Source of the DNA: a virus
Taxonomy: Duplodnaviria > Caudoviricetes
DNA length: 25,267 bases
Virus record (IMG/VR): IMGVR_UViG_3300020399_000007
Location: 1 to 25,267 of that record
Reading direction: 5' to 3' (one strand)
Position 1 is the stretch's first letter, and each line of letters begins with the position of its first letter. Positions 11,981 to 25,267 of the stretch are shown here, piece after piece. A program made the position numbers and the translations under genes. The notes under the pieces were generated by a model. It did not search any database, was not told the origin of the DNA, and worked only from the letters and a program-made list of their open reading frames with translations.

Positions 11981-11989
11981 AAATTTTTA

Positions 11990-12151
11990 ATTGGTAGGCT
12001 CTTTAGAAATTACCAAGAATATGATTGCTCACATAAGGACTTATTCAGCGAGTTCCCCCTTCGCGTCACCTTAAACCTTGTCTCATATGATTGGGTATCA
12101 TGTAAGTATGAGAGTTAGTAATCCTTGATAATCTCTAAAGAGGCTACCAAT
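11990..12151 (-). ncRNA. Candidate structured RNA / 5' leader (~160 nt, long closing stem, multibranch interior)
   Basis: Arms 11990-12020 and 12121-12151 pair over 31 positions, with three G-U wobbles on the - strand and one C-C mismatch. Interior hairpins include AUGUGA-GCAA-UCAUAU (GNRA loop). Confidence 0.65.
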
Positions 12152-12162
12152 CCTATACATAT

Positions 12163-12221: not shown

Positions 12222-12770
12222 CTAGTAAGCTGCAGATACCTGCTGCTTGGATGCAAGAGCTTCATCTTGAACGATAGCTACGCCACGCTCAAGGTCAAAG
12301 TCCTCAACATCACCTACTGTTGCCAGTATATCATACTTGCGCTCAGTTCGTCCACGGAATTCCTCCGTGAAAGAAGCGACCACAACAACCTTACCAACGA
12401 GATCAGAACTGCCGGGGTTCGGTAGTCCAGCGTCTGAACATTGTCGGGTTAGCCGACCAAGGTCAGTCTTAGCATGCATAGATGGAGACTTACCAGACTC
12501 CAGAGCTTCTGCTTGTGCTCGACTAATGTTGATGTATAGGTCACGAGGACCTGCAGACGTTTCAGGATGTATCTGCTTGATTGTCCATTTTAATTCCACT
12601 TTAGGGAATGAACGCTCTTCGCCAGTTTCCTTGTCGTTGTAGGTAATCGTTCGTTTCTGAAACACAGGTTCCCCTGCAATTTCAGCTAACATAACCGTTC
12701 GGTCTGAGACATTGTTTGCGTCAAGAAGATCTTCACCCAACTCCAATACCTCAATTGTTTCTTCTGCCAT
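12222..12770 (-). CDS. Putative single-stranded DNA-binding protein
   Basis: 182-aa acidic, beta-rich protein with a DLVGKVVVV strand, between helicase and exonuclease/Sak4 genes where SSBs usually lie. AAGGA RBS. Function inferred from context. Confidence 0.5.
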   Translation of the reverse strand: MAEETIEVLELGEDLLDANNVSDRTVMLAEIAGEPVFQKRTITYNDKETGEERSFPKVELKWTIKQIHPETSAGPRDLYINISRAQAEALESGKSPSMHAKTDLGRLTRQCSDAGLPNPGSSDLVGKVVVVASFTEEFRGRTERKYDILATVGDVEDFDLERGVAIVQDEALASKQQVSAAY

Positions 12771-22142: not shown

Positions 22143-22154
22143 ACAATCTCCTCT

Positions 22155-22626
22155 CTAGTATCTACCTGTTAGATACAAGTGGATCCAGTAGCAGCATCAG
22201 TGCCCTTAGTGTGCACTACACCAATACAATGGCAAGGAGTTCGCCGTTAGTCATACCTCATACCTCTATCTAATAGGTTCTTACAGGATGTGCTGTTTAT
22301 ACCAGTCCTTAAACCAATGGGGTGTCCATCGGCAGCCCAGCCTATGCTAGATAGAGTTACTCAATCGGTAAGTAACTACTGAATCCACTTGTATGTAATA
22401 GGTAATACTAGGCCAACAGATAAGAAAGGAGTAGGGGATGAATATACCCTTGTTAAATTATCTGCTGACCCAGTACCAACATGGTCGTAAGGTATGATCG
22501 AGAGGGGTCACATACCTTACTAGAGAGACACTTAACACAGCTTTGTAAATAGTTTCTAATTATTTTACATGCTAAGTATCTCTCTAGTAAGGGGGAACTA
22601 TACGGCAGCAAGCTCCCACTGACTAG
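22155..22626. ncRNA. Non-coding chain of five long, mostly overlapping inverted repeats (candidate structured RNA)
   Basis: H1 22155-22411 (~37-bp closing stem), H2 22407-22474 (17 bp), H3 22487-22520 (10 bp), H4 22515-22592 (23 bp), H5 22584-22626 (16 bp). All five imperfect pairs in H2 and H4 are G-U on the - strand. Confidence 0.6.
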
Positions 22627-22644
22627 ACTTTATTTAGATTTCAT

Positions 22645-22920
22645 TTAACGAGCGCCTCGACGGGGAGCTTCAATAGCTTCACCATCATCAGCCCCACCGA
22701 ATTGCTCGGCAGCTAAGACAGCTAGCTTAGCCCACGTTGTAGCTGTAATAGGAGGTGCCATCTTAGTGTAGACATCACCACCATCTTTGTATTGAGTAGA
22801 CTTGCCGAAGCTAATCTGCTTAACACCGTTGTATTCTGATTGCCATGCAACCAGTGTAGTGTTTTCGCCAACACTAATGCGTACCGCATCTTCCGGTACT
22901 TCCACAAAACTTTTAGCCAT
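22645..22920 (-). CDS. PC4/YdbC-like single-stranded nucleic-acid-binding protein
   Basis: RISVG...LVAWQSEYNGVKQISF......DGG...TK....ITATTWAKL follows the PC4 strand/helix pattern. GAAAGG RBS. Confidence 0.6.
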   Translation of the reverse strand: MAKSFVEVPEDAVRISVGENTTLVAWQSEYNGVKQISFGKSTQYKDGGDVYTKMAPPITATTWAKLAVLAAEQFGGADDGEAIEAPRRGAR

Positions 22921-22974
22921 TTCATTACCTTTCTTTTGACTATTATTTTATCTTTGAGTATTCTGCCGAACCCT

Positions 22975-23450: not shown

Positions 23451-23682
23451 CTATATACTCCTTATCTTCTATACTACTACCACATATAACACAGTAGAAG
23501 TATTGTATCTTCTGATACACTGCGTTACCTTGCCCTACAAATCCTAGCTTAGTAACTAACTGTGTCTCATGGCATACCTTATCGGTATCCTTTATGTTAT
23601 GGGTAGCGTGTACTACGTCACCCTGTTGATAGGTATTAACCCATCGCTTAGTTCCTTCTTTACCGTACTCAACAAATGGCAT
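23443..23682 (-). CDS. Hypothetical early protein with a CxxC motif
   Basis: 79 aa, AAGGAG RBS, CVICG. Confidence 0.7.
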   Translation of the reverse strand: MPFVEYGKEGTKRWVNTYQQGDVVHATHNIKDTDKVCHETQLVTKLGFVGQGNAVYQKIQYFYCVICGSSIEDKEYIDG

Positions 23683-23728
23683 GTTTAACTCCTTACATTA
23701 TTGATACCATGTATATACCAAACCGACT

Positions 23729-24000: not shown

Positions 24001-24044
24001 CACTAAAGATGACAAAGCGGGTGGATAGACCCCGTAGGGGTCTA
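24001..24044 (-). repeat. Early intergenic element, copy C
   Basis: + strand: CACTAAAGATGAC-N8-TGGA-TAGACCCC-GTA-GGGGTCTA. Confidence 0.8.
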
Positions 24045-24068: not shown

Positions 24069-25267
24069 TTAGTTATATACTCTCTTACCATCTACCGTTA
24101 CCCACCTAGTAACTGGCATCTCCGGCTCTAAGTCTACATCTAGTGTAGCCTTCAGGGTATCCACTACCTTAAGCTGTGGTCTAGGTAACTCGTTACCCGT
24201 TAGCTTTAAGTAGATGGCACTAAGCGTATCATCTTCGGAATCCTTAAGCTTCTTAAGGACACTACGGATGTAGCGTTTAGTGGTGGCATTACCATGTAAG
24301 CCGTTGTTCTTACCACTAAGTGCATTAGCTACTGCTCGTAAGTGACTAGGAGGTAGGTGTAAACCCTTAGACTTGAACAACTCTATTAAGGTATGAACCT
24401 CAACCGCTGTCTTAGGTCTAGTCTTAATCGCTTCATGGTAGTCAATGTCTACTGCTGCGCTGTACATCTCAGGTTCCTCATCTACGTTAGACTCTATCCA
24501 GTCTAGTACGTCTAGGGGAACTACTGTAAGACGCTGCTTTCTACGCTCAGTACGGTAGTCTGTAATAGCTGTGTCGATACAACTACTGAGGTAGGTGTAA
24601 GGGTTACGGATTGTAGCCCCGTCGTTTACCCTGCTTAGGAACTTAACCACTGCGTTAGTAGCGATATCATCTAAGATATCTACGCCCTGAGTTTGCCGTT
24701 GGTATAAGTCCCAATCCCTGTTAGCTGTACGGTTTACAGTTCTACGGATGGAGAAATCCTTTAAGTCCCTAGCTGTAAAGGTAAGCTGAGTTGGTACACC
24801 CTTTACAGTAACAATACCCTCCCAGATTACGTTCTCCGGTTTAGTGTCTAGGTTAGGTTGCTTCTGCTGAGATGGTAAGTCACTAGGCTTAACAGTTACC
24901 TTTACAGTCTTTACATGATTAGCTTGCCACTCCGTAGTAGCCTTCTCGTAATCACTACGTTGCTTTTGAATTTCATGTAAGAGCATCCACGGCTCTACGC
25001 CGTAGTAGTGACCGTAGCCAGTCTTACGATGTCGCTTACCCTCAGCATGTATCTTAGCGTAGAAGGGTTCATCACATCCATTAACCCATTTAGTGTAGCA
25101 GTAGATAGTACCCTTAGCCTCCGTCGGCAACTCAGCTACGCTATCGTACCAGATGGGCTGCTTCTTAGGGGGCTTAGGTAATCCAGAAGGGCTGTGCCAC
25201 TTATACTTACAGGATTCACCCTTAGTAATTACCTTAGTAGCGTTCCCTCTTACCTCTACTGTACAAC
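24069..25267 (-). CDS. Sigma-70/ECF region-2-containing protein with a long N-terminal extension (5' truncated by the window edge)
   Basis: DDIATNAVVKFL.......IRNPYTYLSSCIDTAITDYRTERRKQR matches the ECF sigma region 2 pattern (ED..Q.....L......F.TWL..IA.N...D..RK). The frame is open from 25130 to the window end, so the track's TTG is not the start. Confidence 0.62.
   Translation of the reverse strand, partial: CTVEVRGNATKVITKGESCKYKWHSPSGLPKPPKKQPIWYDSVAELPTEAKGTIYCYTKWVNGCDEPFYAKIHAEGKRHRKTGYGHYYGVEPWMLLHEIQKQRSDYEKATTEWQANHVKTVKVTVKPSDLPSQQKQPNLDTKPENVIWEGIVTVKGVPTQLTFTARDLKDFSIRRTVNRTANRDWDLYQRQTQGVDILDDIATNAVVKFLSRVNDGATIRNPYTYLSSCIDTAITDYRTERRKQRLTVVPLDVLDWIESNVDEEPEMYSAAVDIDYHEAIKTRPKTAVEVHTLIELFKSKGLHLPPSHLRAVANALSGKNNGLHGNATTKRYIRSVLKKLKDSEDDTLSAIYLKLTGNELPRPQLKVVDTLKATLDVDLEPEMPVTRWVTVDGKRVYN

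Follow-up and report, generated by a model that had tools for sequence, protein, structure and literature searches.

An array of hairpins, 22143..22644 on the minus strand, fills the gap of about 500 bases between a gene for a predicted PC4-fold protein and the next gene of the early operon, and is real, conserved and uncatalogued in Rfam. The window, i.e., the whole stretch of 25,267 nucleotides analysed here, is part (25 kb) of the genome of a marine phage with double-stranded DNA. The array may represent a modular RNA scaffold that is co-transcribed with the early operon and whose loops would pair with the phage's own early ribosome-binding sites, damping their translation; we put the probability of this reading at roughly 0.4.

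Genomic setting and fold of the array

Genes with matches in the window include those for DNA polymerase A, class II ribonucleotide reductase, DUF932, an amidase and an r1t-type holin. A blastn search of the window against cultured phages gave no match. The phages that carry related arrays are marine and podovirus-like, and include two complete genomes of about 60 kb each (G002 and G003). The capsid of G002 is of the SU10 type, and no integrase was seen among 30 G002 proteins scanned. Proteins of this family are present in a metagenome-assembled genome labelled Dehalococcoidia, which is a binning hint only, with SAR202 as the lead for a host, and two genome scans for a host returned no useful prophage. 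A giant ORF in G002 (17832-30428; 4198 aa, and 3758 aa in G003) matches no Pfam or PHROG family.

Three viral and 19 metagenome loci were collected by scans, and L005 was added by DNA pattern. Sixteen of the 19 metagenome loci were extracted; L028-L030 stop within the 91-aa PC4-fold gene and L015 stops 8 nt past it. Removal of five duplicates left 15 distinct arrays including the window, 12 of them complete, and the complete homologous arrays are 416-679 nt long. The element is present in all 15 extracted loci with sequence downstream of the 91-aa gene, and every distinct array sits behind this same gene. Other pattern matches (L004, L031-L034, L036-L038) were judged to be chance. Among 24 distant records chosen by capsid protein, two had a match at E 0.1, one of which is real and cut off (G014). 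None of eight near-complete distant records had an array match, and a similar stem cluster is absent from G012, G013 and G016.

The gene directly upstream of the array (22645..22920, minus strand) encodes the 91-aa protein, for which clustering at 90% gives 16 relatives. Its designation as PC4-like in the first-pass annotation is tentatively retained: the top six structural matches are all PC4/Pur-alpha folds, with Z scores of 4.3-5.5, all below 8, and the match to 5a4n (Z 5.5, rmsd 3.8, 67 aligned) is weak at a model pLDDT of 67. In PC4 structures, a curved beta sheet precedes a single helix. Downstream, the genes predicted earlier as YubB-like (PF18406) and methyltransferase were recovered, whereas ArdA remains a lead only for the 111-aa gene. 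The first early gene (24069-25267, minus strand) has no Pfam match and resembles sigma-70 regions 2/4 (score 0.92), which is a lead. A short C/G hairpin with a tetraloop, followed by TCC and GTCA, recurs on the minus strand at 24041, 23769 and 23013, and is repeated in G002, L013, L015, L017, L018 and L023. It is restricted to early intergenic gaps, where its last copy precedes the PC4-fold gene by about 90 nt, and is possibly a phage early promoter or processing signal.

The minus strand, on which the genes lie, folds at -182.5 kcal/mol (z -9.8), better than any of 100 shuffles, and the plus strand reaches z -5.7. The sense strand folds better than the antisense strand in 15/15 arrays (z -5.9 to -19.7, 12 shuffles each). 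Together with compensatory changes among the relatives, this bears out the earlier suggestion of selection on RNA pairing in the sense direction. All five inverted repeats described earlier are found in the sequence, the fifth, a shorter one at about 22584-22626, being seen in the fold, and neighbouring repeats do have bases in common. The longest repeat pairs 22163-22191 with 22376-22404 over 29 bp, closes 184 nt and is extendable to about 22155/22411. The others pair 22406-22423 with 22458-22475, 22487-22496 with 22511-22520, and 22515-22537 with 22570-22592. As reported, every imperfect pair of the 18-bp stem (three in all) and of the 23-bp stem is a G-U on the minus strand; the 29-bp stem contains one mismatch and, on each strand, one G-U. 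Two points of the earlier description need amendment: the long helix also encloses a multibranch domain with hairpins that had not been listed, and the array gap, called the only large gene-free stretch, is accompanied by a second structured gap at 11989-12152.

This second element (minus strand, z -5.4) consists of a 32-bp stem closing a 100-nt domain. It is present in relatives (G001 30421-30582, G002 58365-58528, G003 near 12283-12460, and L109-L115), where it shows compensatory changes, and has no Rfam match. It lies behind a sigma70-like promoter (about 12194-12166) and ends just before the start of a nuclease gene, and its C-rich and G-rich loops could kiss. The 3' arm of module A of the array (22589-22599) is an 11-nt complement of its G-rich loop (12061 region), a length expected by chance.

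The array had been described as belonging to no recognised family, and Rfam indeed gave no match in the window down to E 1; in ten relatives only generic hairpin models were hit, far below cut-off. Neither covariance models nor ARAGORN gave a match to tRNA/tmRNA, riboswitches, ribozymes or GOLLD, ROOL and OLE RNAs. Cores of the hammerhead, HDV, twister, pistol, T-box and group I classes, compared by eye, did not fit. Loop lengths vary by non-multiples of three, and a coding role was rejected on this basis. Transcription of the array is expected from its position. One metatranscriptome contig of 162 nt covers 22229-22388 within domain Z at a depth of 2; it is no proof of an element transcript, since the same run also has contigs on coding parts.

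Exchangeable modules, loop bias and candidate targets

Hairpins of about 15 types occupy the part ahead of a constant 3' multibranch domain, named domain Z, and they are gained, lost or duplicated as whole units. Module order is fixed across arrays and module content is variable, for example A-B-G-H-Z in the window, A-B-C-D-E-F-H-L-Z in L003 and A-B-I-J-K-H-Z in L025. In the window, all modules lie on the minus strand. Module A (22584..22626) is the short first hairpin, with a core at 22593-22617 and an extension that overlaps bases of module B. Module B (22515..22592) has a 23-25 bp stem and a hypervariable loop with 15 variants; it is doubled in L014 and L026 and absent in L005. Module G (22487..22520) has a 10-bp stem and a CCCCUCUC loop, the predicted main partner of the downstream Shine-Dalgarno (SD) site. 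Module H (22403..22478) combines a conserved, covarying stem of 17-21 bp with 10 loop variants. Two-sided changes occur at 3/17 pairs of stem H, which is 96.8% paired; such covariation counts are inflated by relatedness, as the tool warns, and slid controls drop to 26-48% paired. Module ends reuse one half-palindrome, which is why neighbouring hairpins share bases, and which may be a recombination point for modules. Module L (L003 array about 415-497; L005 about 245-358) allows two crossing helices, i.e., a double pseudoknot; one helix covaries between L003 and L005, and there is no Rfam match.

The loops are biased in composition. CUCC, the complement of the SD core, is the top-ranked unpaired 4-mer and occurs in 6/15 module types, compared with a mean of 1.5 in pooled shuffles (0/2000 reach 6) and of 3.0 in within-loop shuffles (p 0.026). 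In this count P5 was left out, the patterns missed A in L016, H in L021, J in L005 and the insert in L002/L003/L023, and module G was counted as paired, since its partner in the global fold is the downstream SD. GGAG is unpaired in 0/15 types; by distinct contexts in the predicted folds, the unpaired counts are 17 for CUCC and 1 for GGAG. Many loops, namely those of modules A, C, D and most B, have no anti-SD. The flanks of the anti-SD cores score above flank shuffles when 11 arrays are summed (72.3 vs 63.9 +/- 1.6, 0/400); without the P4 hairpin of domain Z (Z-P4), three of the 11 arrays have no excess.

Complements between the loops and early start regions are short, 7-9 nt. The H loop of the window holds UACUCCUUUCUU (about 22422-22433), with 8-nt complements to two of these regions, the ribosome-binding site AAGGAGUA of the 143-aa early gene (23456..23463, minus strand) and the start region of the PC4-fold gene (22928-22935, minus strand). 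The ribosome-binding site AAGGAGUU of the 79-aa early gene (23687..23694, minus strand) is complementary over 8 nt to the Z-P4 loop. These sites are candidate targets. In a post hoc comparison, own early start regions were set against other SD-bearing genes of the same genome by longest loop complement, in four genomes that amount to about two lineages, with script-called gene starts (some errors among non-early genes) and with G001 early starts borrowed from L013, which has the same array. The early excess by pairing length gave p 0.011 (G002), 0.004 (G003), 0.127 (G001) and 0.020 (window). Without the Z-P4 loop the values are 0.029 (G002), 0.010 (G003), 0.080 (G001) and 0.015 (window), and with a best-start control for the other genes 0.016 (G002), 0.004 (G003), 0.19 (G001) and 0.052 (window). 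By duplex energy the excess is significant in one of the four genomes, G003 (p 0.064, 0.001, 0.78, 0.43), which is also the only one significant by Fisher test at an 8-nt cut. Own start regions mostly score no better than those of unrelated phages, with median duplex energies of -15.6 (early), -16.2 (downstream), -14.2 (late) and -14.8 (control). Cognate against non-cognate comparisons are marginal (p 0.047/0.19; 0.015/0.063/0.10; 0.035/0.11/0.10; eight tests). Long antisense matches to own genomes do not clearly exceed reversed-sequence controls (scores 19-20). The coding sequence of an 82-aa early gene (G002 49733-49753, L023 4701-4721) equals the module B stem at 20/21 nt; controls score similarly, and the likeness may be chance.

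The strong CUCC enrichment beside a weak cognate signal would fit loops directed at the host, either as generic anti-SD elements against host mRNAs or as decoys for a host factor, be it a protein or a nuclease, with specificity for CU-rich RNA or the 16S tail, and with an arms race driving the swapping of modules. Hypervariable loops on fixed stems, and a locus in an early region where relatives have ArdA-like genes, are also consistent with this possibility. A mimic of the 16S tail would carry a C before the core, however, and only 3/20 CUCC contexts do; a generic 16S tail likewise gives no early-gene excess (p 0.10, 0.13, 0.74, 0.64). We consider a host-directed role somewhat unlikely.

The two longest loop complements are perfect over 12 nt and fall in start regions of other family members, not at the own locus, whereas the best complement among 380 control start regions is 10 nt. 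On this basis, guide hairpins might be exchanged as a programmable anti-RBS array that retunes silencing of the early genes of the phage itself and of competing relatives, which is quite doubtful. The cross-family matches may reflect mosaic descent or competition. A conserved AAGGAGU site, which often precedes the ArdA antirestriction gene in relatives, is a frequent predicted target among ribosome-binding sites.

Domain Z and the downstream ribosome-binding site

Domain Z (22155..22411, minus strand) is a multibranch domain of 190-260 nt. It comprises a closing helix of 27-29 bp, a short P2 with an internal loop that we take to be kink-turn-like, a variable insert (22261..22359, minus strand; about 20-110 nt among relatives), P4 and P5. 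Z-P4 (22231..22245, minus strand) carries 9 nt, GAACUCCUU, that are invariant in 12/12 complete arrays, and Z-P5 (22195..22226, minus strand) has a GCAC-capped side hairpin and an invariant AGGG bulge. This bulge could pair with the P4 loop as a pseudoknot, which lacks covariation because its bases never vary; the P4 loop may be locked in this way, which counts against targeting by Z-P4. Two-sided changes occur at 13/65 pairs, spread over all six helices, with 93.7% of cells paired and a covariation score reached by 0/500 shuffles. Compensatory changes are seen in both domain Z and stem H.

The SD site of the downstream 57-aa gene (22149..22156, minus strand; gene start 22142) lies just 3' of the Z closing helix. 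In 10/12 complete arrays its main partner in the predicted folds belongs to the array: the G or J loop in seven and a CU-rich stretch after module F in three. This pairing is not independent support, since any nearby anti-SD loop would do likewise. A folding switch between one arm of the 23-bp stem of module B and this ribosome-binding site had been put forward earlier. The sequence does allow this alternative pairing over 10 nt (22151-22160 with 22518-22527, one base from where it had been placed), but its probability is at most 0.001 in the 11 complete arrays with this arm. Among relatives the match weakens from -16 to -5 kcal/mol with no covariation, and the switch was rejected.

A double-stranded stem of about two turns is a substrate for RNase III, and the array stems of 17-29 bp are long enough by this measure. 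The element might act in cis on processing or stability, with RNase III stems splitting the early transcript, one loop holding the downstream SD and the rest neutral. The predicted SD pairing would fit such a role, as would the position of the Z helix, which ends just before the next SD, and of a second long stem at 11989-12152 placed likewise. However, a single stem would suffice, and up to nine modules, the anti-SD loops in at least six types and the invariant unpaired bases of domain Z would be left unexplained; nor do the loop and the downstream SD covary at the variable position among G-bearing arrays. A processing element of this kind is unlikely. It is plausible from the same stem lengths that the array is an RNase III precursor of several small RNAs, as had also been suggested.

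Domain Z could alternatively be a separate folded RNA, such as a ligand sensor, a ribozyme or a protein-binding core with a P4-loop/AGGG pseudoknot, to which the upstream hairpins are accessory. Its invariant unpaired bases, its kink-turn-like loop and the large insert it tolerates are consistent with this, and elsewhere in the genome another closed domain has a C-rich and a G-rich loop that are complementary to each other. The Rfam searches, the invariance of the pseudoknot bases and the array itself, which would be left without explanation, argue against it, and we regard it as improbable. A DNA-level element (an origin, a MITE/REPIN-like chain or a recombination cassette), for which the half-palindrome at module ends could serve module exchange, is extremely unlikely given one locus per genome record at a fixed position, G-U-preserving changes, the better fold on the gene strand and no skew switch at the locus. 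The rival readings are not all mutually exclusive.

Proposed mechanism and relation to known RNAs

In the preferred reading, that of a modular scaffold directed at the phage's own early genes, the array would be transcribed as the 3' tail of the PC4-fold gene. Its CUCC-type loops would pair with the ribosome-binding sites of early genes, the translation of which would be damped as array RNA accumulates. Whether as a stable segment of the early transcript or as a stable product of it, the array RNA would persist and outlast the mRNA, because its stems and their overlapping ends leave only short single-stranded linkers. Host RNase III may cut the stems and free the loops for action in trans. Before cutting, an upstream loop is predicted to sequester the SD of the downstream gene, which the same cut would release. 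Taken together, these steps would amount to an early-to-middle timer. A chaperone role for the PC4-fold protein is speculation.

If the proposed reading is true, an RNA timer made of exchangeable anti-RBS hairpins would be a new design of phage regulation, bearing on early-gene shut-off in uncultured phage groups that lack known repressors, and a scaffold for multiplexed translational silencing. Even without self-targets, the array shows clearly how a non-coding RNA can evolve by whole modules, and domain Z is an uncatalogued covarying RNA domain.

A literature search found no published description of the array RNA. The early mRNA of phage T7 has intercistronic RNase III sites, which are long stems just before a ribosome-binding site. 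The phage array likewise places long stems between early genes and before a ribosome-binding site; the T7 sites are single hairpins without arrays of anti-SD loops. RNAIII is similar in size to the phage array. Like RNAIII, 6C and the RsaE class of Gram-positive bacteria, the array exposes an unpaired C-rich, SD-complementary motif in its predicted folds. In the RsaE class, an unpaired C-rich motif binds mRNAs and blocks initiation (PMC2790875). Unlike these RNAs, the array is phage-borne, exchanges modules, has predicted self-targets and shares no sequence or Rfam similarity with them.

Cuckoo RNAs of Alphaproteobacteria (CcsR1-4/RSs0680 and NfeR1/C14) have adjacent hairpins with anti-SD loops, and each loop carries CCUCCUCCC, on variable stems in sets of two to four similar hairpins (PMC4615179). 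A gene for a small RNA-binding protein gives rise to CcsR RNAs, which are cut out of its 3' UTR (PMC8034643); the phage array similarly follows the PC4-fold gene. The phage array differs from cuckoo RNAs in its varied CUCC contexts, with no loop carrying the CCUCCUCCC nonamer, its five to ten dissimilar, swapped modules on conserved stems, its 190-260 nt multibranch domain, its phage carrier and its lack of an Rfam match.

The c4 RNA of phages P1 and P7 also has loops that pair near the ribosome-binding site of its own mRNA, with phage-specific sequences (PMC12197685). This RNA, of small size and with a single target transcript, functions in prophage immunity in P1/P7, whereas the phage array has many loops, several short predicted targets and no match to Rfam C4; no antirepressor was found among the flanking genes scanned. 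A viral candidate RNA catalogue could include the array; three of its six text supplements contain no match (PMC10690425). The best reading is that the array would work like the cuckoo, RNAIII and c4 RNAs, yet belongs to none of them.
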